This document shows positions 30,775-42,518 of a DNA stretch of 61,155 bases, piece after piece. The notes under the pieces were generated by a model, which was not told the DNA's origin, made no database searches, and saw only the letters and a program-made list of their open reading frames with translations. Location of the stretch: contig JBILEK010000005.1 of the NCBI GenBank assembly GCA_044352155.1, positions 1-61,155 on the forward strand. Reading direction: 5' to 3'. The translations under genes and the position numbers were made by a program. The number at the start of each line of letters is the position of its first letter. Within the stretch, counting starts at the first letter, position 1. Origin of the DNA: Bdellovibrionia bacterium (GTDB taxonomy: Bacteria; Bdellovibrionota; UBA1018; JBILEK01).

Positions 30775-30842
30775 GCCAACGGTTTGACAGTTTGACTCTG
30801 GATCCTCTTGCCGTAGACTAAAGGTTAAGGGGGTTGCAGAGG

Positions 30843-31256
30843 ATGGCAACCAAACGAACTGTACTGATCGTTGACGACATCGCGTTTGTGCGATCGATGC
30901 TAGCGCAAGTGCTTTCAGAAAATCACTTTCAGGTCGTCGGTGAAGCTGAAAACGGAATCGCTGCGATCGAAATGTTCGAGCGTACTCGGCCTGATGTCGT
31001 CTTGATGGATGTCGTGATGCCGAATCTCGGCGGCATTGAGGCGACGCGACGTATTCTGAAAAAACATAAAGAAGCAAAGATCATCATGTGCTCGGCGATG
31101 GCTCAAGAGAGCTTAGTCATGGAGGCGATCAATGCAGGCGCGCGCGATTATGTGCTGAAGCCGTTTTCAAGTCAGGATATTTTAAAAGCAATTCACCACG
31201 TGCTTCAAGGTGGTGATCTCACTCAGCGTCGTCCAAATCAAAGGGCGGTCGGATGA
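30843..31256 (+). CDS. cheY: Single-domain CheY-like response regulator
   Basis: IVDD, MDVVMP, CSAM, KPF. Confidence 0.82.
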   Translation: MATKRTVLIVDDIAFVRSMLAQVLSENHFQVVGEAENGIAAIEMFERTRPDVVLMDVVMPNLGGIEATRRILKKHKEAKIIMCSAMAQESLVMEAINAGARDYVLKPFSSQDILKAIHHVLQGGDLTQRRPNQRAVG

Positions 31257-31711
31257 GCTCACCTTGGAAAGAGGCTTTTGAATCAAGTCTGCCCATGCAC
31301 TTTGACTTTTATCACTTAGGTCGTGTTGAACGCCTCGGACGATCACTTCGACCCGAGTTTTGGAATCTCCACGACTGCGTGGCACTGCAGTTCAAAATCT
31401 ACTCGATGAGCGAAAGCTTAGTCGGGTACATCTATGTGTTTATTGACTCAGGGCTTGACTCCTCTGTCTATGCTGAGCTCGGCAATGTGATCGCAAGTCA
31501 GACTTCTCGATCCCTGAGTGACTCTCACCGCTTTGGCGAAGAGTTTTTTATCACGCCCCCAAGAACAATCACCGTTCCTCTGGTCGAGAAAATGGTAGCT
31601 CTCGGCGGAGAGTGGACCTCACTCAAGTACCGCCATCAGCACCGCGACCACTCCATTGAGGTTCCCGTTCTCATTCATACTCAGTCGGGCGCAAGGAGTG
31701 CTCGTGCTTAA
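31253..31711 (+). CDS. Divergent CheC/CheX-like protein
   Basis: ELGNVIA (ExxN motif) and ITPP; overlaps the cheY stop. Confidence 0.5.
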   Translation: MSSPWKEAFESSLPMHFDFYHLGRVERLGRSLRPEFWNLHDCVALQFKIYSMSESLVGYIYVFIDSGLDSSVYAELGNVIASQTSRSLSDSHRFGEEFFITPPRTITVPLVEKMVALGGEWTSLKYRHQHRDHSIEVPVLIHTQSGARSARA

Positions 31712-31991
31712 GCTCATTGGACTCCTTTTTAAGATCAGCCTGTTTGCTCTTGCAGTGCTCGTACTTGGAAACCTGGTACAGGTTCGAGGCCGTACGGTCT
31801 CAGATCAGATTAAAACTCAAATGTCCCATGCCGAGCGACTCCTCCCGGTGCAGCCGCTCGAAGAGTGGCGAAAAAAGATCAAAAACTCCTCCGACGATCT
31901 GTTGCACTCTGCCCAAGAAGAGATCCTCCCTTCGGAGCGAAAAAAGCTTCAGGGTCTTTTGCGGGAACTCAACTCCCAAGACTCTCGCTAA
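31704..31991 (+). CDS. Small membrane-anchored hypothetical protein
   Basis: GTG start with AAGGAG RBS, N-terminal TM. Confidence 0.65.
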   Translation: MLKLIGLLFKISLFALAVLVLGNLVQVRGRTVSDQIKTQMSHAERLLPVQPLEEWRKKIKNSSDDLLHSAQEEILPSERKKLQGLLRELNSQDSR

Positions 31992-32133
31992 ACTCCCTGT
32001 CTAAGAATTGGACAGCTGCGCGCCTCTTTGCGCCACTCGAGGGCCCCTTGGGCCACCTCCGCCCAGGGCTATTTCGTGATATAAATTCAATAATTTCAAT
32101 AACTTAATAACCAGGATCCAATTTGACTCACTG

Positions 32134-32149
32134 TGGCATTTTGGTTGCA
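32134..32149 (+). promoter_or_regulatory. Sigma54 (-24/-12) promoter of secreted peptide 1, with IHF-like site upstream at 32094-32106
   Basis: TGGCATTTTGGTTGCA = GG-N10-GC; upstream TTTCAATAACTTA has one mismatch to the IHF consensus. Confidence 0.7.
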
Positions 32150-32204
32150 CCCCTCTTCTTCAAGAGAGAGATGCGCTGATCGGCGCCGCGAAAGAGGAGT
32201 TGAT

Positions 32205-32438
32205 ATGAAGAACAAGAGCCTAAACACCATCTGGATTCTAGCCCTGACGATCTGTAGCTCTGCAGCTTATGCAGGAGGCCCTATTGGCGGAGAGCGCCGC
32301 TGGGTGGAAACTGCAAGCGAGCCAGGAGCCACACTTTGTCACGAAGGCGCAAAAGTTCTAAGCCAGGTCATCACAGAGACCTCAGACGGACAGAAAAAGT
32401 CTGCTCAAGGTCGCTCTGCTGCATCTGCTGCACGCTAA
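32205..32438 (+). CDS. Small secreted peptide 1 (77 aa)
   Basis: GAGGAG RBS, Sec signal ending AYA, low-complexity mature part with one Cys, tail KSAQGRSA. Confidence 0.72.
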   Translation: MKNKSLNTIWILALTICSSAAYAGGPIGGERRWVETASEPGATLCHEGAKVLSQVITETSDGQKKSAQGRSAASAAR

Positions 32439-32440
32439 AC

Positions 32441-32457
32441 TGTAAAAACTTTTGACA
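32441..32457. promoter_or_regulatory. Near-perfect palindrome, candidate transcription factor operator
   Basis: TGTAAAAACTTTTGACA, one mismatch from TGTCAAAA-N-TTTTGACA. Confidence 0.4.
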
Positions 32458-32499
32458 CTCAAAGTGTGCCATTCCGAAAACAGCCGCATGAGCTTAGAA

Positions 32500-32527
32500 T
32501 CAAGAGAGGATTCTGGCCATCCGATAC
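32500..32527 (+). promoter_or_regulatory. FliA/sigma28-type promoter of secreted peptide 2
   Basis: TCAAG-N15-TCCGATAC, 23 nt before the ATG. Confidence 0.55.
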
Positions 32528-32550
32528 GAGAGACAAGACAGGGAGTAACT

Positions 32551-32751
32551 ATGAAGAAGCTTTTGTTAATCATGGCTCTGATGATCTCGGCGCAAGCTGC
32601 TTTTGCAGAAGAGGTCACAAAGAGCACGCAAGGAGGCGAGATTCGCCCCGACTGTAACGCGGTTGTGGATGCGTCGACGATCCTTCCTCAGGCCCCAGTC
32701 TCAACGAGCACGCCTGCGCCGAAGTCTAGCCAAGGTCGCTCAGCTCAGTAA
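32551..32751 (+). CDS. Small secreted peptide 2 (66 aa), positional analogue of Hit/Bd0108
   Basis: GGGAG RBS, Sec signal MKKLLL...AFA, Ser/Thr/Pro-rich mature part with one Cys, tail KSSQGRSAQ; adjacent to the Bd0109-like gene. Confidence 0.75.
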   Translation: MKKLLLIMALMISAQAAFAEEVTKSTQGGEIRPDCNAVVDASTILPQAPVSTSTPAPKSSQGRSAQ

Positions 32752-32813: not shown

Positions 32814-34478
32814 TCAAAAGGACAGCGTAACGCCCGCAGGACGAATGATGTCCAGCAGATTTTGAAACGCGCTCGTCACTTGAAGCGCGATCCTACGGCC
32901 TGCTGACGAATCGACACTCTTCACTTCACCTGAATTACTGTAAGTCACTTTGATCGAGCCAAGCTTTGGATCAATGATCTCAATGGGCTTTGAGTTCTGA
33001 TCGTACTTGAAGTCGATTCTGCGCTTACTCTCGTCAATCATACTCGCGATTCGACCGTTACGATCGTAAATCAACTGCACACCTTTGCCCTTGTCGTTTT
33101 TCGCAAGCGCGAGATTGCCTTTGCTGTCATAGCTGTACTGAAACCAGGCACGTTTTCGATCGAGTTTTGAGAAGCGATCGACTTTAGTAACCTTGCCGTA
33201 CTGTGGATGATAGGCGAGCCGCGTGAGCTCTGAGGGGGTATCTTTTTCGACAACCCGCCCTTTAACGTCATATTTAAACTTGGTCTCATCTGATCCTTTT
33301 TTAATCAAAGTTGGGAGACCGCAGCACTCATTGTAAGTCGTCTCCGTACGATCGCCATCGACGACAGTCACTAGACGGTACTGCCAACTTTCGCCATTGG
33401 GTTTACGCTTCAAAAAGTATTCGTACGATGAGTTGGAAATCGGACGAGAGTCTCGGTTTTTGACTTTCACGCCCACCGTAAAGTGCAGGTCGTCTGCCTT
33501 ATCTTTTTGATACGAGTACTCAGTCAGTGTCCCTTCGCGATCTTTCAGAGACTTGACATTAAGGTCTTGCGCCACTCCATAGTACTCAATCTCCATCGTC
33601 GTTTTGTCCGAGTAGGTGATCTTGCGAAGATTATGATAGTTATCCGTCGAGTACTCGTAGCGATAGACATTTCCGAACGCATCTTTGACTTGCGTAAGCT
33701 CAAGCTGATCGTTGTACTGGTACGTTGCAGTCTTGCCGCCCTCACTCTCAACTTTTTCCAGTAGACCTTTGTTATTCCAACTCAAGAACATCTTGCGCAA
33801 AAAATTATCTTCAAGACTTCGTAGTTTTCCGTCCTTTTGATAGGTGAAATTCAGAAAATTATTGTTACGGTCGGTGATTTTGACAAGCTTTCCGTCCTCA
33901 TCGAAAACTTCAACTTTTCCATTTTCAAATGAGCGCTGATAACCACTCTTTAAACGCGTAATGTATTGATAGCTAAATTTATTCGAAGTGAACTGCGTCC
34001 CTTCGGGCACCTTGCGGCGCTGCAGTTTCCCACTTCGCACGAGCGCCTCCCATTCGCGATTACGCAGAACGGGATCTTCGCGCAGCTGCTTTTGATACTC
34101 CTCGATGCGTGCCGCTCCACTCACTTTGCCCGAAGAGCGCGCCGCATCTACAATCGCCTTTATACCTTGCTCGAAATCGGCCGCGTTGAACTTAACGGGA
34201 GTAAATCGATTCTCGGCACCCCCTCCGTACTCGTATACAGTGATGCTACCGTCAGCAGATACTCGCAAATATACTTCGTACTCAGTACCCCAGCCCCAAC
34301 CAAACATCCCTTTATAGATACTCTTTGAGTTGTACACGCGCTCGATCTTGGGCTCGAAGCCACCAGTATAAACAACGTCGCGATAACCGATAAAAAAGTT
34401 TCCAGTCCGCAAGCTAACGTTAGCCTGCACGCTAGGCAGAATCGACAAGAACGCGCACAAAACAAATAGAGCTCGCAT
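32814..34478 (-). CDS. Secreted YD/RHS-repeat protein, Bd0109-like, no toxin domain
   Basis: Signal peptide, DUF6531-like N-terminus (RVYNS...GMFGWGW), many YD repeats, ends FQNLLDIIRPAGVTLSF without a DPxG core. Confidence 0.85.
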   Translation of the reverse strand: MRALFVLCAFLSILPSVQANVSLRTGNFFIGYRDVVYTGGFEPKIERVYNSKSIYKGMFGWGWGTEYEVYLRVSADGSITVYEYGGGAENRFTPVKFNAADFEQGIKAIVDAARSSGKVSGAARIEEYQKQLREDPVLRNREWEALVRSGKLQRRKVPEGTQFTSNKFSYQYITRLKSGYQRSFENGKVEVFDEDGKLVKITDRNNNFLNFTYQKDGKLRSLEDNFLRKMFLSWNNKGLLEKVESEGGKTATYQYNDQLELTQVKDAFGNVYRYEYSTDNYHNLRKITYSDKTTMEIEYYGVAQDLNVKSLKDREGTLTEYSYQKDKADDLHFTVGVKVKNRDSRPISNSSYEYFLKRKPNGESWQYRLVTVVDGDRTETTYNECCGLPTLIKKGSDETKFKYDVKGRVVEKDTPSELTRLAYHPQYGKVTKVDRFSKLDRKRAWFQYSYDSKGNLALAKNDKGKGVQLIYDRNGRIASMIDESKRRIDFKYDQNSKPIEIIDPKLGSIKVTYSNSGEVKSVDSSAGRRIALQVTSAFQNLLDIIRPAGVTLSF

Positions 34479-34493
34479 GATCTCCCCCAAGTC

Positions 34494-35372
34494 TTAAACG
34501 TCGATCTTAACGACTTTTAGTATGACGAATAGAGCTACAACTTCCAAGAGTAGAACGATCATGAGCAGGATCCAGCCAAACGCAGTTGTAAACAAAGGCT
34601 GCATTAACTCTGGGTCACTTTGCTGCATGAGCAAAAGCATCATGGGTGGCACACCGAGTAAGAACATCCCCTGCATTCGAGCTTGCGCAGTCATGGCCTG
34701 GATCTTTCCTTCGACCTTGATGCGATCGCGGATCGTTAGAACGATGGTGTCAAAAGTCTCAGCCAAGTTTCCGCCGGTTTCTTTGAGGATATTGACAGAA
34801 GTCACAAACATCTCAACATCGTCAGAAACCACACGTTTTGACAGACTCGTCAGACACTCCTCTAATGGGGTGCCCAACTTGTTCTGACTCAAAACCAAGT
34901 TAAACTCCTGCTGGATTGGATTGGGCATCTCAGAGGTTACGAGCCCGAGCGACTGTACCACGCTGAGCCCTGACTTCATGCCGTTGGACATCAGGGATAG
35001 TCCGTCCACCATTTGGTTCACAAACCTTTCAACACGCTTTTGATAAAAGTAATCGACTACGAACTTAGGCACTTTCCAAGCTAATACCGACCATATCGAA
35101 GCTGCCAAAAGACCAATCACATAGTGCGGGAGGATGAGAGTGAAAAAAATGAGTCCTGGTCCCAGAGCAAACATGAGCTGTACGAGCAACACTCGGTGCG
35201 GAGGAACATCAATAAACATGAGCTTAAGTTTATCAACAATGTAGTCACGCGTGCCGACCGACTGGAATCGAAACCAGTCTAAAAACTGTTTATTGTAATG
35301 AAGAGTAAACAAAAAAACTGCAACCCCAATGAGCGCGAGAGCGGCCCAGTAGTAAAGAATTTCCGTCTTCAT
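34494..35372 (-). CDS. tadB: Flp pilus assembly platform protein TadB
   Basis: GMKSGLSVVQSL, ETGGNLAETFD, MTAQARMQ; TMs. Confidence 0.88.
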   Translation of the reverse strand: MKTEILYYWAALALIGVAVFLFTLHYNKQFLDWFRFQSVGTRDYIVDKLKLMFIDVPPHRVLLVQLMFALGPGLIFFTLILPHYVIGLLAASIWSVLAWKVPKFVVDYFYQKRVERFVNQMVDGLSLMSNGMKSGLSVVQSLGLVTSEMPNPIQQEFNLVLSQNKLGTPLEECLTSLSKRVVSDDVEMFVTSVNILKETGGNLAETFDTIVLTIRDRIKVEGKIQAMTAQARMQGMFLLGVPPMMLLLMQQSDPELMQPLFTTAFGWILLMIVLLLEVVALFVILKVVKIDV

Positions 35373-37525
35373 TTGACCGCGAAAAGACCGCGAGAAATCT
35401 TCATCCCCTTGGCCTCCATCTCCTCTACAAATTTCGGAATAAATCCCGTCGGCACGTAGCGACCGATGACTTTGCGATTCTTGTCGAGACCTTCTTGCTT
35501 AAAGTAAAAAATATCCTGAAGCGAAATCACCTCGCCCTGCATGCCGGTGACTTCGCTGATATAAGTCACTTTGCGTGAGCCATCTGAGAGACGACTTTGC
35601 TGAATAATGAGATTCACTGCGCTTGCGATTGTTTCTTTTAATGCTTTCGAGGGTAAGCCCAACCCTGCCATCGTGCACAGAGTCTCAAGTCGCCCAATGC
35701 ATTCGCGTGGATTATTCGAGTGGACGGTGGTCATTGAGCCAGCGTGACCGGTGTTCATGGCTTGAAGCATGTCAATTGCAGCGCCATCACGAATCTCACC
35801 TACAACAATTCGATCCGGTCGCATCCGAAGACAGTTTTTCACAAGATCTCGAATGGAGACTTCACCCTTGCCTTCAATGTTTTTGGGGCGCGCCTCAAGA
35901 CGTACGACATGCTCCTGCACCAGCTGAAGCTCAGCAGAGTCCTCCACAGTAATCACTCGATCCGAGGACGGAATAAAACTCGAGAGTACGTTCAACAGGG
36001 TCGTCTTCCCTGAGCCGGTCCCCCCAGAGACAACGACGTTAAGCTTGCCTTCGACGCAAATACGTAAAAAGTCAGCAATCTCCTCCGTCATCGAGCCCTT
36101 TCCTACAAGGTCTTTATAAGTCAGCCGATGTTTCGGAAATTTTCGAATCGTGATCGTAGGGCCCCGCAGGGCAAGAGGGGGGATAATAATATGCACTCGC
36201 GAGCCATCCGGAAGTCTTGCGTCCACATAGGGAGACGACTCGTTCACTTGACGCCCGAGAGGTGCGACAATCCGGTCAATGATCGTACGCATCTGAGTTT
36301 CGGTCGTAAAAGTTACTTTGGAGAGGGTCGGCTTACCTGACTTCTCAATAAAAATCTGGTCTCTCGCGTTCACCATGATTTCAGTTACCGTATCATCAGA
36401 GAGAAGATCTTCTAGTGGTCCAAAACCAAGCGCCTCATCCAGCACCTCTCTCACGATTTGCTGCTTGAGTTCACGTGTCTGTAAGATGCTACCTGCGTCC
36501 TCAGTCGGGAGAGCTTCAAGGACTGCTTGTTCAGTTTTTTTGTAAATGACTTCGCGCTGCTTGGGATCTGCGGTCTCGAAGTTCATTTTTTTTAGATCAA
36601 GTTTATCTTGAATCGCCGCAAGGAGACGGATCTTAAGCGCAGTCCAAGCATCAACTGATCCCATCCGGCTCCGTCCAAAAGGCGAGCCATCTCCTGATCG
36701 AGCAACCGAACTCTGATCCTGAGCCTTTGCGGCCACATGAGCTGCAACGCCGGTGGGCTTTTTGAGTTGCGCAAGACGCTTTAAGAGGTCCGTCTGCTGC
36801 ATTTTTCGAACAAGATCATTGTACGCCCGCGCCAGTGGAGTGCCCGGGGCAAGAATCGTCAGTGGCGTCGATTTTGAGAGACAGCCATCACAAGTTGAAG
36901 GCTCATCCGGAAGTACGGCGAACACTTCGCGATTAAGATTTTTTTGAATGACTGCAGGATTGTAGAGACTCCCTGCATTAAGTTTGTTGACAATGATCTG
37001 CACCATCTGAGGAGGAAATAATAACTCTTGAATTCGAGCGATCACACGCTTGGTTTGATTCATGACAATCAAATCAGGAGTCGTCACAACAAAAATCGCA
37101 GTCGCATACTCCAGCACACGCATTGTGTGAGAGTCCATTGAGCTTCCGCAGTCGACGACAACGAAATCAAAAATATTTGTAACGCTTTTTAGAAAACGAC
37201 TCAGACCTTCGCCATCAAGATCACTTGCAAGAATTGAATCTCGAGGTGCACCAATGAGGTGATAACCCTGCGGAGCGTTCACCATAAAAGGCGCCAAAGT
37301 TTTTGGATCCATTGGACCCACAGGCAGTTTTGATACATCCACAATACTTCTCTGCGGATTTTGACCCAAGATCAGGTTCTGATCCCCTAAGCTCGTCAGA
37401 TCGAGATCGACAATAAGGGGGCGCTGCTTAAAGTTCTGCATATGCGCGATCGCAAGATTTGCAGCAAAGACGCTCTTACCCACTCCTCCTTTTCCGCCTA
37501 CAACTGCAACGAGATGTCCTGGCAT
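35369..37525 (-). CDS. tadA: TadZ/CpaE-TadA/CpaF fusion ATPase
   Basis: N-terminal MinD-like GGKGGVGKS domain; C-terminal [30 protein letters not shown]. Confidence 0.9.
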
Positions 37526-37528
37526 GGG

Positions 37529-39190
37529 TTACTTCACCTTGACTCGAAAGTTTTTCTTAAGATCGCTCGTGCCTTCGGAGGCATCGGTCACAATTTGTGG
37601 AGTCACAAAAATCACGAACTGACCCTTTTTCTTTTTATAGTTCTTAGAGCGCGTCAGCGTGAACAGAGGTCCTGTGGGTCCTTGAAATGAGCCGGGGTTA
37701 GGCTCATCTTTGTTAAAGTTGGTCAAAACGTCTTGTGAGTTCGCTCCTGCAATGGCGGCACTTTCGAATGACTTCACATACAGAGTAGTGTTGACACGAT
37801 GAAGCGCTCTGATCGGCGTCGATCCACTCTGCCCCACTTGACTGCTCTGCTCGATGTCAGCTTTAAGCTCGATATCATCTGACTGTCCTAAGATCGACGG
37901 AGTGACCGCAAGACTGAGTCCAATGTTCACAGGTGCTCCGGCTTGAACCGTGCCGTTTGCTCCTGCGACCACAGTGGGAAACTCGGTTTGATCATTCACT
38001 TTAGCCGGAAGTCCGCTGCGCACTAGCACTGTCGCTGTCTTAAGGACGCGTGCATAGCCTGCTTGTTGAGCGCTTTGTAGCTTCGGGAACAAACTTGAGA
38101 TCGTTGCAGTAAAAGAGGTTCCGCCGCTTGCGCCAGTACTACCTGCTTCAGTCTGACCTACGGTAAGCGAAGGATCTCCCGTAAAACCTGGCTGCCACTT
38201 AAACCCAAAAAGTCGCTGATAATCTTTTGATAGCTCAACAAAGTGAAAAGTCACACGCACCAGCTTGTCCGCTTTGCGCGGAGGAGCTGGATTAATGACA
38301 ATAAACTGTTGGATCAGATCGCGATTGTTTGCAACATCCACTCGCTCATCGGCACCGAGGAGTTTGGTTGAGGACTTCACATCCGGCAGGTGCAGGCTTG
38401 CTACTTTCATCACACGGGTGAACGCACCACGATCGTCCACTGAGCCTTCGAGCCAAATCTGGCTATTCACCACTCGAGTCGTCACATTGGGTGCAAACGT
38501 GGAGATCTCTTTTTTAATGCGGTCAGAGATGATCTTCAGTGAGACGGGAGACATTTGGACCAAATTTAAAACCAGAGCCTCAGGATTTGCCGGGTCCTCG
38601 TAGGGTCGAACCACTGAAAATAGACGTCGATAATCAGCTGGGACATAGACCTCGCCATCAATGACGATTTTTTTACCGACAGAGCGGATCTTGATTCCTT
38701 CAATATCCTTTAAAAGCTCTCGTAACTCCATCGTGAGGCTATCGAGGTTCGTTCCGTTCACGCGGACATGAACAATCAGCTGCAGGACCCCGTCCTCGTC
38801 GCGCACAGTCACGGTCGTCTCACCTACCGAGAGCCCTCGAAAAACAAGCTGTCGGCGCTCTCCGACTTTTACAAGCGTATAGGAGAGAACCTTGGGATTA
38901 CCAACAGACACTCCGTTTGCGGCCAAGCGTGCGTCAAAGTCGAGGTCGATGACACGATCTTCGCCCACATTCACAATCAGGCGCCGACGATCGGCTGAGC
39001 TCTCGGTGTCGTCGCTTGTCAAGCGTGAGCGCTTGCGCTTAGGTGCTGAGGGATTTGCGCTCTGAGTCCCACCTGAGTACTCCATCGGACCCTCAGCAAA
39101 AGATGTCCGCTCAGTTGAGAGCATGAAGACGACAGTCAGCAGCACAACCATCGCGCTGAGCCTAATCTGATCTGTCTTCATTCGCGACAT
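37529..39190 (-). CDS. rcpA: Tad secretin RcpA/CpaC with BON-like domains
   Basis: Signal peptide, pilus-formation N domain (GETTVTV), C-terminal FVIFVTP; position between cpaB and tadA. Confidence 0.8.
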   Translation of the reverse strand: MSRMKTDQIRLSAMVVLLTVVFMLSTERTSFAEGPMEYSGGTQSANPSAPKRKRSRLTSDDTESSADRRRLIVNVGEDRVIDLDFDARLAANGVSVGNPKVLSYTLVKVGERRQLVFRGLSVGETTVTVRDEDGVLQLIVHVRVNGTNLDSLTMELRELLKDIEGIKIRSVGKKIVIDGEVYVPADYRRLFSVVRPYEDPANPEALVLNLVQMSPVSLKIISDRIKKEISTFAPNVTTRVVNSQIWLEGSVDDRGAFTRVMKVASLHLPDVKSSTKLLGADERVDVANNRDLIQQFIVINPAPPRKADKLVRVTFHFVELSKDYQRLFGFKWQPGFTGDPSLTVGQTEAGSTGASGGTSFTATISSLFPKLQSAQQAGYARVLKTATVLVRSGLPAKVNDQTEFPTVVAGANGTVQAGAPVNIGLSLAVTPSILGQSDDIELKADIEQSSQVGQSGSTPIRALHRVNTTLYVKSFESAAIAGANSQDVLTNFNKDEPNPGSFQGPTGPLFTLTRSKNYKKKKGQFVIFVTPQIVTDASEGTSDLKKNFRVKVK

Positions 39191-39198
39191 CCCTGAGA

Positions 39199-40059
39199 CT
39201 ACCTCGTTTGAGCAGGAGCACGCGGCTGAACTGCGCTCGATCCTGCAACTCCCATTAACTCACCCAGCGAAAGCGGCAAAATTGCTGCCCTTTCGGTATC
39301 GTCATTATTTCTCAAAGCAACCGTGATCTGTGCTCCGGCACTCGAAGTAATCAGACCCAAAGCTTGAGCCTGCCTTGGGTCCACTTCAATCGTAATGGAG
39401 TTAAAACCATCGTACTCAATCAGGGAGCGTGAGCGCAGTTTACGTGAGGCCCCTTCTTGCTCCATGACGCGCGCAACGTTGTTGGTCACGTTACGACCTA
39501 CTGCAAGTACGACAACATCTTGAAAAAGCGTTTGGGAGAACGTCCGCATGCGGTCCTGACCTGGGACAAAGGTCACAATCAGATCAACGCGGTCTCCTGG
39601 CTTCAGAAGCTTACCCACCCCACTGAGCTCATTGACTGGAACTGCGATTGCGCGCTTACCGGGCGCCACCTGTGGAGAGAGCCCAGTACGAATACCGGGT
39701 TCAGAGATCTTGTTGAAGGTAATTTGTTCGCCTTGCTTGATTGGAACCATCGCAATCATGCCCGAGATCTCGCGAAAATCCGAAATATAGACCTCACTCT
39801 CCCCTTTGGGTCGACGCTTTTCGTCCTCCACAACTGTAATAGCTGTCGGCTCCTTGAGCTTGCTGGGGATCGTTTTAATGGTCACAATTTTTTCAGTCAG
39901 GGTCTCCATCTCGTTGATATTTTTGAGCGCAACGAGGACTTGAATCTTTGAGCCGTATCGTTTCTGACTTTCATCCTCCACCGTCGAAACGTAGCTCTGC
40001 ATAAAAAACACAGCCAAAAATGCCATGATCGTCGACATCAAAACGACGTTCTTATTCAT
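39199..40059 (-). CDS. cpaB: Flp pilus assembly protein CpaB/RcpC
   Basis: SAF domain, PGKRAIAVPV, LKPGDRVDLI, VVVLAVG, LRNNDD. Confidence 0.9.
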   Translation of the reverse strand: MNKNVVLMSTIMAFLAVFFMQSYVSTVEDESQKRYGSKIQVLVALKNINEMETLTEKIVTIKTIPSKLKEPTAITVVEDEKRRPKGESEVYISDFREISGMIAMVPIKQGEQITFNKISEPGIRTGLSPQVAPGKRAIAVPVNELSGVGKLLKPGDRVDLIVTFVPGQDRMRTFSQTLFQDVVVLAVGRNVTNNVARVMEQEGASRKLRSRSLIEYDGFNSITIEVDPRQAQALGLITSSAGAQITVALRNNDDTERAAILPLSLGELMGVAGSSAVQPRAPAQTR

Positions 40060-40640
40060 TTCGGGCCTCCCCTACAGTAGCTGATATTCGCAGGCATGTT
40101 CTGACTCGGATTGAGAGTCGTATTTAAAGGCATACAAAGAGTTACTGTGTTGCGTACTCGCACAAAGCTCCGCTCGCGAACAATATCGCGCTGCCCTTCG
40201 GCGTCCTCACCCTCTGCGCGGCCTGCGATACCGCGCTCCACAGAGTTTGCCGTGCCATCTTCTTTGAAAGACTCGAAGTATCCGCCTTTACCTGGCTTAA
40301 TCTTAAAAGTCGCCGCATAAAACACTCGTCCGTCACCCCCTGCCCCCTCACGAGGAGCCTCGTTAGAAGCCACAAGTACCGTCTGATGCTCGAGGTTGGG
40401 TTGCGCTGCTCGACGCACGAGATCCGGGTACTCTGCGCTGTTGTAAGTGAGGAAAAGATTTTGAGCGCGTGCGTACTTTTGATTGACGATCGACATCTGA
40501 ATGACTGTGTTGGTACGCACAAGAAACATCGACATCAAAAGAATGACAGGCAAAACGAAAAGAAACTCCACGACTCCCTGGCCACGACAATCCATCTGAA
40601 ATTTTTTAGGCGTAAAACTCACGCCTCTTCTAGCATCCAT
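40056..40640 (-). CDS. TadE-like pseudopilin
   Basis: RG/QGVVEFLFVLP prepilin cleavage motif; start uncertain. Confidence 0.7.
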   Translation of the reverse strand: MDARRGVSFTPKKFQMDCRGQGVVEFLFVLPVILLMSMFLVRTNTVIQMSIVNQKYARAQNLFLTYNSAEYPDLVRRAAQPNLEHQTVLVASNEAPREGAGGDGRVFYAATFKIKPGKGGYFESFKEDGTANSVERGIAGRAEGEDAEGQRDIVRERSFVRVRNTVTLCMPLNTTLNPSQNMPANISYCRGGPK

Positions 40641-41247
40641 TGTCGTAGTACACCTGTTGCGGAGGTGATCCTCCGCGAGTCTTTACTTTCTCCACACATC
40701 CCGCAGGTCCGCTTGCGGCCCACGGCTCTTCTCTGCCTAACCAAGACTCTGACGTTAATTTGACTTTGGACTCTCCAGTTCGCCGAAGGGACATAAACGT
40801 CAGACTCCCCTTAAAGGTGTATCGGACTCCTTGTTGCCAACTTGAATCGCGATTAGGTCGATCTTGCCCTCGGCCGCTGAGCACGGGCCCTGGTCCAAAT
40901 GCAGCTCCAGTGACGTCTGCTTGGTTTAGACTTCCGTCTCCTTGAATAAACATCTTGAATCGATCTTGCCCTCCGCGCTTGAGCATCGTCTTAAGCACTC
41001 GTGCAGCGGCGGCTTCTTGACTTTCAGCTGAGACACGCGCTGGAAGGAGCGCGCGCGCTGACATGAATGTGGCGTACTGGATATAGCTTCCTACCGCTGA
41101 CACCATCGCCACCTGGAGGTAGAAAAGGAAAAAAGTAAACACCAGTGCCAAGACCAGGACGAACTCGATCGTCGATTGGCCGCTCGAGCGCTTGCGCTTA
41201 CTCTTCACGCGGTTTGAAATAAAAGATCCTGAAATTGCCACTCGCAT
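40630..41247 (-). CDS. TadE-like pseudopilin
   Basis: SG/QSTIEFVLVL and ATFMSARA; ends YDNGC; true start 41247 or GTG 41208. Confidence 0.72.
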   Translation of the reverse strand: MRVAISGSFISNRVKSKRKRSSGQSTIEFVLVLALVFTFFLFYLQVAMVSAVGSYIQYATFMSARALLPARVSAESQEAAAARVLKTMLKRGGQDRFKMFIQGDGSLNQADVTGAAFGPGPVLSGRGQDRPNRDSSWQQGVRYTFKGSLTFMSLRRTGESKVKLTSESWLGREEPWAASGPAGCVEKVKTRGGSPPQQVYYDNGC

Positions 41248-41491
41248 CACTAAAAACGCGGGGATGATACTCGTAATCTGCGCCCCGCTGGCGCGTCCTT
41301 GGATCCCCGAACTGATACGCAGCTCCAAAGGTCTGCTCGTATCCGCCAAAAAATTTATCCGGAAGCCCCCAGGCCTTAATCCCGTTGTAGGTTGCATAAA
41401 AAAAACCAACCACGATCGAAACAAGGAGGATGTACTCGATGATCGATTGACCTGATTCATTGCCAAGAAGCTTCTTGCGCTCTAAAACCAT
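41198..41491 (-). CDS. Flp-like minor pilin
   Basis: NESG/QSIIEYILL; GGAGG RBS before ATG 41491. Confidence 0.75.
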   Translation of the reverse strand: MVLERKKLLGNESGQSIIEYILLVSIVVGFFYATYNGIKAWGLPDKFFGGYEQTFGAAYQFGDPRTRQRGADYEYHPRVFSDASGNFRIFYFKPREE

Positions 41492-42265: not shown

Positions 42266-42457
42266 CTACTCTGTCTCGTTTAAGACCGTATCGATTCGAC
42301 CACCGATTTTCTCGGTTGCCCCTGTGATCTTATCGCCGATCCCCTTCTTGAATTTCATCGCGATGATGACCACGACACCCAAAATCAAGATGTACTCAGT
42401 CGTCGACTGCCCGTCCTCTTCGCTCCAAAACTCCCGAATTTTTTTGAGAACGTTCAT
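42266..42457 (-). CDS. flp: Flp pilin 1 (likely major pilin)
   Basis: EEDG/QSTTEYILIL, 63 aa, AAGGAG RBS. Confidence 0.88.
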   Translation of the reverse strand: MNVLKKIREFWSEEDGQSTTEYILILGVVVIIAMKFKKGIGDKITGATEKIGGRIDTVLNETE

Positions 42458-42489: not shown

Positions 42490-42518
42490 TTATCGGCCAA
42501 AGAGAGGCCTAACCTTGA
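42490..42518 (-). promoter_or_regulatory. FliA/sigma28-type promoter of the flp operon
   Basis: Minus strand TCAAG-N16-GCCGATAA, with a perfect sigma28 -10 element. Confidence 0.65.

Follow-up and report, generated by a model that had tools for sequence, protein, structure and literature searches.

The hit locus of Bdellovibrio is a classic and still unexplained switch between obligate predation and prey-independent growth. A counterpart of this locus lies in the stretch of DNA analysed here, contig JBILEK010000005.1 of assembly GCA_044352155.1; the whole stretch of 61,155 nucleotides (nt) is called the window, and its parent assembly, from a freshwater predatory bacterium of the Bdellovibrionota, comprises 2.53 Mb. 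Two small genes, termed pep1 and pep2, point at the 3' end of a gene for a secreted RHS/YD-repeat protein akin to Bd0109, the last gene of a Tad operon; they are convergent with it, and pep2 ends 62 nt from its stop codon. On balance, pep1 and pep2 are probably this lineage's hit-locus peptide pair. Genes, motifs, synteny, promoter conservation and tail statistics are observed; export, disorder, binding to the RHS protein, stage-specific expression and a function of the C-terminal tail are inferred. The following elements make up the core of the locus.

32094..32106, plus strand: IHF-like site, one mismatch to WATCAANNNNTTR
32134..32149, plus strand: putative sigma-54 (-24/-12) promoter of pep1, TGGCATTTTGGTTGCA = TGGCAT-N5-TTGCA, one mismatch to TGGCAC-N5-TTGCW
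32205..32438, plus strand: pep1, distal-type hit-locus peptide of 77 residues, with signal peptide, GGERR, 13 residues, Cys45, a short helix-prone stretch and the tail KSAQGRSAASAAR
32397..32420, plus strand: tail repeat copy 1, KSAQGRSA, in pep1
32453..32471, no strand assigned: palindrome TGACACTCAAAGTGTGCCA between pep1 and pep2
32500..32526, plus strand: putative FliA (sigma-28)-type promoter of pep2, TCAAG-N16-CCGATA
32551..32751, plus strand: pep2, proximal-type hit-locus peptide of 66 residues, with signal peptide, GGEIRPDCNAVVDAS, a Pro/Ser/Thr-rich stretch and the tail KSSQGRSAQ
32722..32745, plus strand: tail repeat copy 2, KSSQGRSA, in pep2
32814..34490, minus strand: Bd0109-like secreted RHS/YD-repeat protein of 558 residues, last gene of the Tad operon

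The two peptides and their promoters

An earlier note on this DNA, made from the sequence alone, had described two Sec-signal peptides facing the YD-repeat gene, each with a GGE.R motif, one cysteine in the mature part and a common tail. The open reading frames (ORFs), their orientation and the motifs were all recovered; the signal peptides and cleavage sites were assigned by eye and with a crude rule rather than a predictor. A K-rich start and a hydrophobic core lead to putative cleavage between AYA and GG in pep1 and between AFA and EE in pep2, and each gene is preceded by a Shine-Dalgarno sequence (GAGGAG and GGGAG, respectively). In both predicted mature parts Ala, Ser, Gly, Thr and Pro are abundant and a single Cys is present, an additional Cys being found in the signal peptide of pep1. 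The shared GGE.R motif reads GGERR in pep1 and GGEIR in pep2. The composition is of the disorder type, and the Atlas model of pep1 has a predicted template modelling score (pTM) of 0.23 and a mean predicted local distance difference test (pLDDT) value of 0.50. Neither peptide matched Pfam, and the top feature score of pep1 in the ESM Atlas (0.78) was at chance level. Two homologues of pep1, both of 74 residues (P0004 and P0005), are 77-78% and 74-76% identical to it. A complex prediction for RHS residues 24-558 with mature pep1 scored 0.07 against a mark of 0.32, which amounts to no verdict and carries no contact information on the tail.

The two genes follow promoter motifs of different classes. 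TGGCATTTTGGTTGCA begins 71 nt before the ATG of pep1, and just 41 sites in the genome, on both strands, come within one mismatch of TGGCAC-N5-TTGCW. rpoN is present in the genome, as are 17 or more full-length domains of enhancer-binding ATPases, of which three are encoded on the window contig; no activator site or cognate activator was identified for the pep1 motif. Elsewhere in the genome, a further sigma-54 motif (G000:C38:55028, plus strand) precedes the gene for a 76-residue, Ala/Lys-rich signal-peptide protein. The motif before pep2 ends 24 nt from its ATG and differs by one mismatch in the -35 element, with exact spacing, from TTAAG-N16-CCGATA, the attack-phase consensus of B. bacteriovorus, which occurs in 92 of 140 attack-phase promoters (PMC3627812, PMC5430801). 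The same type of motif precedes four of the five flagellin genes and the flp pilin gene of the window genome, and fliA is present. Within the Tad cluster it is found at 42518 (minus strand), before the flp pilin gene (42266-42457), and at 40845 (minus strand), within an ORF at 40630-41466; in two Bdellovibrio species the Tad operon is known to be FliA-driven (PMC3627812, PMC5430801).

The sigma-54 and FliA-type motifs named in the earlier note are present, and both gain from the comparison with relatives described below. The IHF-like site that it had placed beside the sigma-54 motif fares less well: the sequence is there with one mismatch, but the window holds 43 such matches where 37.25 are expected by chance. 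Likewise, the palindrome that was said to precede pep2 is present, but it resembles a terminator on the minus strand only. In relatives, this position would be that of the terminator behind a proximal peptide gene on the RHS strand, and the palindrome, with its minus-strand T-run, may be a relic of a former gene orientation.

Contigs from four freshwater sequencing runs (four studies) are more than 99% identical to the locus over the covered parts, coverage being partial in three of the runs. Where covered, population variants occur at 32100, 32101, 32112, 32467 and 32486, all of them intergenic and none within pep1 or pep2; the variant at 32467, in the palindrome, was seen in two runs, and those at 32100 and 32101 hit unspecified positions of the IHF-like site. 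Joints of a phase-variable inversion or deletion between the tail repeats were not seen in these contigs, which cover the region in part and drop rare variants. Weak inverted repeats are present, which proves nothing. A perfect 11-nt inverted repeat (31992-32002 and 32536-32546) flanks pep1 together with its promoter and the promoter of pep2; by our own rough estimate about 0.1 such repeats are expected per region.

Peptide genes after the RHS gene across the Bdellovibrionota

RHS homologues are close to universal in the phylum: all 41 relatives have one, as do 112 of the 116 genomes of the order and, at phylum level, 234 of the 236 genomes that are at least 98% complete. The window genome stands alone in its family, with a top RHS identity of 60%, and two metagenome scans yielded no RHS protein closer than 58% identity. 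For a survey of the adjoining peptide genes, 154 loci were gathered and merged into 93 clusters at 80% RHS identity, and small ORFs with a signal-peptide-like N-terminus up to 1.7 kb past the RHS stop codon were taken as candidates. Curation removed TTG starts, Cys-less ORFs, the Bd0103-like protein, ORFs overlapping an earlier one, and opposite-strand ORFs except those of L004, L008/L045 and, in the promoter counts, L020; among the ORFs removed was a 122-residue, apparently folded signal-peptide protein in L010.

At least one peptide gene follows the RHS gene in 81 of the 93 clusters, at least two do so in 39, and at least three in seven. The unique candidates number 197. All but three, which are visibly spurious, possess a Cys past residue 20 (194 candidates), and in 132 there is just one. 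Their composition is dominated by Ala, Ser, Gly, Thr and Lys, and 143 of 194 end in K, R, Q or N. The gene nearest to the RHS gene is called proximal here and those beyond it distal. pep2 fits the proximal pattern G[EQ]..[DN].DC.[SA]V.D, and pep1 the distal one, GE-x8-13-C, seen for instance as PGAT.C in L038. Within its order pep1 can be aligned on GE-x-C and the region past the Cys; against the sets of f13 and of g104, the Bdellovibrio-type genus, the hhalign probability does not exceed 0.1%. The best profile-profile match obtained, between the g104 Bd0108-like and g104 distal sets from the Cys to the C-terminus, has an E-value of 0.011 and a probability of 3.8%.

In the 93 cluster representatives a sigma-54 motif was sought up to 150 nt upstream, with two mismatches allowed and GG and GC fixed. 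Of the 47 distal genes, 45 have the motif, at a distance of 39-134 nt from the start codon. Among the 81 proximal genes it is present in 20 cases and absent from all 32 that lie no more than 60 nt from the RHS gene; the background is 25 matches in 503,886 nt of RHS coding sequence. The FliA-type motif, with one match in the same 503,886 nt, precedes four of 81 proximal and none of 47 distal genes. The proximal genes of L016 and L046 carry a FliA-type motif (137 and 149 nt upstream) as well as a sigma-54 motif (73 and 54 nt upstream).

The orientation of the window genes is unusual. Among the curated genes, three of 81 proximal and one of 47 distal genes lie on the strand opposite to the RHS gene, and the window locus alone has both flipped; the nearest neighbours of the flipped loci carry same-strand peptide genes. 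Since each window gene is turned while the chromosomal order is kept, one block inversion cannot produce the arrangement. Two further lineages, L008/L045 and L020, have only their proximal peptide gene turned, that of L020 having its own sigma-54 motif.

The model organism has a distal gene as well. In G189, a B. bacteriovorus-type genome on a single 3.78-Mb contig (locus L114), the RHS gene (97206-98843, minus strand) is followed after 25 nt by a gene for a 101-residue protein that scores 102 bits on NF053838 hit_Bd0108. A terminator comes next, then the sigma-54 motif CTGGCACACGCGATGCA, a Shine-Dalgarno sequence, an ORF for a signal-peptide protein of 66 residues and another terminator.

L114 (G189:C1) 1984-2184 = genome 96483-96683, minus strand: distal ORF of 66 residues with a sigma-54 motif upstream

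This ORF lies within an interval, 96455-96716, for which PMC3818213 describes a 261-nt 'small non-coding RNA' (sRNA) that is up in all bd0108 mutants and has no clear target. Both reverse transcription PCR primers of that study map exactly inside the ORF. Public databases list the ORF as a hypothetical protein or 'lipoprotein', and the second small gene of HD100 is named BD_RS00505 in PMC5941755; literature searches and passages from main texts yielded no publication that ties the ORF to the sRNA or to sigma-54. The 24 genomes of g104 contain 34 distal genes, every one with a sigma-54 motif, and 23 Bd0108-like genes, all without it. Because the sRNA transcript rises in bd0108 mutants, a functional link between the two peptides is indicated.

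In 2013, PMC3818213 proposed a regulatory RNA for the HD100 interval, and the same could be said of the window transcripts, with the ORFs going untranslated. The HD100 transcript was indeed detected, it was described as non-coding, and its level depends on bd0108 status. We nevertheless hold this explanation to be highly improbable. Signal peptide, Cys, Shine-Dalgarno sequence and open frame are kept across the phylum despite divergence past profile matching. Among the g104 distal orthologues the differences at first, second and third codon positions number 1194, 1019 and 1747, so that third positions vary most, and every indel is in frame. Shuffled sequence folds as well as the RNA around the two window genes does, and annotation pipelines already call the ORF a protein.

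A lipoprotein reading was considered for pep1 (Cys17) and for the g104 distal peptides, which one source labels 'Lipoprotein', and was rejected by eye: a lipobox is at odds with the residue before the Cys, mostly Ile, Val, Lys or Thr. In L115 (G190:C1) the ORF 24-221 nt past the RHS stop codon is Bd0108-like and keeps NPGEDPNEA. Beyond this stretch it diverges and has no Cys pair, perhaps owing to a frameshift; the distal sigma-54 gene of the same locus is intact.

The common C-terminal tail

The two tail copies in the window are identical at 20 of 24 bases, and a six-frame translation of the whole assembly contains KS[AS]QGRSA exactly twice, in pep1 and in pep2. The homologues of pep1 keep GRSAAS and replace the KS[AS]Q part by KPAS and KPVS. 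Tails that match within one genome recur in other lineages. When the last 15 residues of the first and second peptides of the same genome were compared over 39 clusters, in which related genomes are not fully independent, the within-genome score was 18.4, against 13.3 +/- 0.64 for shuffled genome pairings (none of 5000 shuffles reached 18.4). Set against the reversed tail, which keeps the composition, the score was greater in 25 cases and less in eight (P=0.002). The signal is far weaker in the preceding 15 residues and weak in the head. In five of the 39 two-peptide clusters the tail score exceeds the 99th percentile of cross-genome pairs, and no two of the five have the same tail: PAPAGK[VT]DVSK, T.T.I.GN, the window motif, HS.G.T and PGAGV. 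Tails common to Bd0108-like and distal peptides also occur in g104; L125, for example, has NGAIGN and NGAIN, and KGI(N)D(R) is found across L139, L140 and L116.

Two explanations other than a tail with a partner of its own bear on these data. The first is that the likeness has no function and is the footprint of a recent gene conversion, or of duplication of adjacent paralogues. The window itself fits this: beyond the 20 identical bases, six of the seven identical residues use the same codon, and further short in-register similarities between the two genes, at the ribosome-binding site and start and in a GG-coding stretch, point to paralogy. In L125, too, five of six matching codons are identical. 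We judge the footprint explanation unlikely. In three of the five clusters with the strongest sharing, matching tail residues share codons at two of seven positions (L069), none of five (L060) and one of five (L045), and because they use different codons there, these tails look selected at the protein level; moreover, the excess of within-genome similarity survives the removal of the five strongest cases (15.6 versus 13.0, again none of 5000 shuffles).

The second was put forward in the earlier note: two stage-switched ligands would dock on the YD-repeat protein by their common tail. This is compatible with the uniqueness of the tail in the genome, with the recurrence of matching tails within genomes, partly with diverged codons, with the retention of GRSAAS in the pep1 homologues, and with a stoichiometry of about three Bd0108 per Bd0109, which implies several sites. 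The published nuclear magnetic resonance (NMR) and binding work on Bd0108, the sole system with such measurements, tells a different story. Bd0108 binds Bd0109 via residues 24-66, with a dissociation constant of 45 uM and a ratio of about 3:1; these residues lose 90-100% of their signal in the presence of Bd0109, residues 74-85 are moderately affected, and the C-terminal residues 89-101 are unaffected. In addition, the two tails of G189, GTGRQ and SKGWN, do not match, strong sharing is confined to the five lineages above, and KS[AS]Q is lost in the pep1 homologues. Docking of the tail on the RHS protein is therefore unsupported, and we regard it as distinctly unlikely, although the argument is one by analogy, as Bd0108 is not related in sequence to the window peptides.

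A probable hit-locus peptide pair and its place among known systems

The surroundings of pep1 and pep2 correspond to those of bd0108 and bd0109, as the earlier note had recognised: Tad genes, an RHS gene and small secreted peptides lie together.

30834-31256, plus strand: CheY-like receiver
31656..31991, plus strand: Bd0103-like small membrane-anchored protein, convergent with the Tad/RHS operon, left edge of the peptide region
32046..32068, plus strand: terminator-like hairpin 3' of the Bd0103-like gene
32835-32820, minus strand: terminator-like hairpin of the RHS gene
34494-35372, minus strand: TadB/C-like Tad/Flp pilus gene
35369-37525, minus strand: CpaF/TadA-like ATPase, Tad/Flp pilus gene
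37529-39190, minus strand: secretin, Tad/Flp pilus gene
39199-40059, minus strand: CpaB/RcpC, Tad/Flp pilus gene (the Tad block spans 34494..40059)

The RHS protein matches PF05593, DUF6531 and TIGR01643. It has YD/RHS repeats, an N-terminal DUF6531, a signal peptide and a length of about 560 residues, with no C-terminal toxin domain; RHS_core aligns to it in part only (30.8 bits against a cut-off of 2000), hence it is not a full RHS toxin core. Its mature part contains just two Cys, which are vicinal (residues 389-390, ECCG). A vicinal pair is found in 82-85 of the 154 RHS loci, and 32 other loci carry four different Cys instead; mixed disulfides between this pair and the single free Cys of each peptide are conceivable. 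The start of the Bd0103-like gene is uncertain (TTG at 31656, or GVG codons about 14 residues downstream), and searches of Pfam and NCBIfam with its product gave no match. Homologues (MLKLIG...GRTVSD...) occupy the same place in many relatives, and the g104 genomes have an 86-residue counterpart there. Between the receiver and this gene, a 152-residue protein (31253-31711, plus strand) shows a weak CheC-like match (E-value 0.056, 13.8 bits, under the cut-off) and an E..N-type motif; the receiver and the 152-residue protein are also upstream of the Bd0103-like gene in L008, L013, L016 and L020.

The window locus is a real, lineage-specific variant of a known system, and the following scheme can be proposed for it. 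pep1 and pep2 would be small, Sec-exported, Cys-bearing and probably disordered periplasmic proteins. pep2 takes the place of Bd0108 as the first small gene beside the RHS gene; pep1 takes that of the second small gene, which occurs across the Bdellovibrionota, almost always with its own sigma-54 promoter, and which in B. bacteriovorus fills the interval published as a non-coding hit-locus sRNA. Because both window genes are turned, neither can ride on the RHS/Tad transcript. pep2 would be transcribed from its own FliA-type promoter, a promoter of the attack-phase type, and the sigma-54 promoter of pep1 needs an enhancer-binding ATPase and therefore a signal. Two inputs could in this manner determine in what proportion two periplasmic ligands reach the RHS protein, a regulator of pili, and act on it. 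Binding would involve the N-terminal or central GE...C parts, by analogy with Bd0108, and the common tail would constitute a separate module that may address a shared partner; gene conversion and, in other lineages, selection would keep its copies similar.

Several points weigh against pep1 and pep2 being a hit-locus pair of this kind. In the first place, the peptides do not match NF053838 at E-values up to 0.1 (family cut-off 40 bits), and no profile-profile links between lineages were found, all probabilities being below 1%; as there is no sequence homology to Bd0108, the grounds for equating them are position, size, signal peptide, Cys, composition and promoter. For pep2, a word-indexed protein library and a HMMER scan of 1.84 billion representatives contained no sequence relative, and its tail cannot be traced in a sister species. 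The peptide counts of the survey depend on rule-based curation filters. As to expression, the FliA-type pattern has 44 sites genome-wide against 16-29 in shuffles, a roughly twofold enrichment that leaves about half of the sites to chance, and the plus-strand RNA between pep1 and pep2 and after pep2 folds no better than shuffles, with no plus-strand terminator between the genes. Since a terminator-like element is missing from this strand, read-through from pep1 into pep2, and then antisense into the RHS gene, is possible. Finally, six of seven shared codons mean that the tail match in the window could stem from recent conversion without function.

A broader proposal goes beyond the pair and is more doubtful, though we think it worth stating as a tentative possibility. 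The hit locus could be a two-ligand switch throughout the Bdellovibrionota, in which the second peptide, driven by sigma-54 and an enhancer-binding protein and mistaken for an sRNA in HD100, provides feedback in response to a signal and goes up upon failure of the Bd0108-type peptide. The matching tails would point to a receptor shared by both peptides and distinct from the RHS protein, perhaps the Bd0103-like membrane protein, which is always adjacent, and the peptide ratio would set pilus activity and the choice between predatory and prey-independent growth.

Prior work on the hit locus has focused on one peptide, Bd0108, and on an sRNA that lacks a known target. If the sRNA is in truth the sigma-54-dependent mRNA of a conserved second secreted peptide, the effects of RNA and peptide become separable in a tractable model; the activator and its signal, the competition of the two peptides for Bd0109 and the partners of the tails would become testable as well. 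To this the window adds a natural variant in which both genes are uncoupled from the RHS operon and each relies on a single alternative sigma factor.

How, then, does the window pair compare with what has been described? It shares with Bd0108/Bd0109 of HD100 (PMC3818213, PMC4267844) a small, low-complexity, Cys-bearing Sec-signal peptide beside the secreted RHS/YD gene that closes the Tad cluster, and a Bd0103-like border. Similarity stops short of the sequence level (between the proximal peptides found in the window's order and the Bd0108-like set of g104, hhalign gives a probability of 0.15%). The model gene lies on the same strand as bd0109 and is co-transcribed with it, whereas the window genes are on the opposite strand, a further point against a simple equation of the two; and pep2, unlike bd0108, has its own FliA-type motif, as do the proximal genes of three other lineages. 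The pep2 motif fits the attack-phase consensus and recurs in type before the flp gene of the window, which is a point of likeness to FliA as master regulator of the attack phase and to the FliA-driven Tad operon in Bdellovibrio (PMC3627812, PMC5430801).

pep1 resembles the HD100 sRNA/BD_RS00505 gene in being the second small signal-peptide gene between the RHS and Bd0103-like genes and in having its own sigma-54 motif; genes of this kind encode a signal peptide and, in most cases, one Cys only, and their motif is 39-134 nt upstream of the start codon. pep1 differs from the g104 distal family in that there is no profile-level similarity, 22 residues and not 3-6 separate the Cys from the mature N-terminus, and the gene is flipped. 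The arrays of short secreted genes reported at the hit locus in 2023 (PMC10469934) are of the same kind and in the same place, and the window pair is another instance of them. The earlier note's view that the arrangement is undescribed therefore cannot be upheld in full, as these arrays and the naming of the second HD100 gene (PMC5941755) precede it. The 2023 report, in the parts available, is silent on promoters, matching tails, gene orientation and the sRNA. What is new at this locus is the general sigma-54-driven second peptide, with its bearing on the published sRNA, the recurrence of matching tails, and the finding that both genes are flipped, so that they are no longer coupled to the RHS operon and each has an alternative sigma factor to itself.

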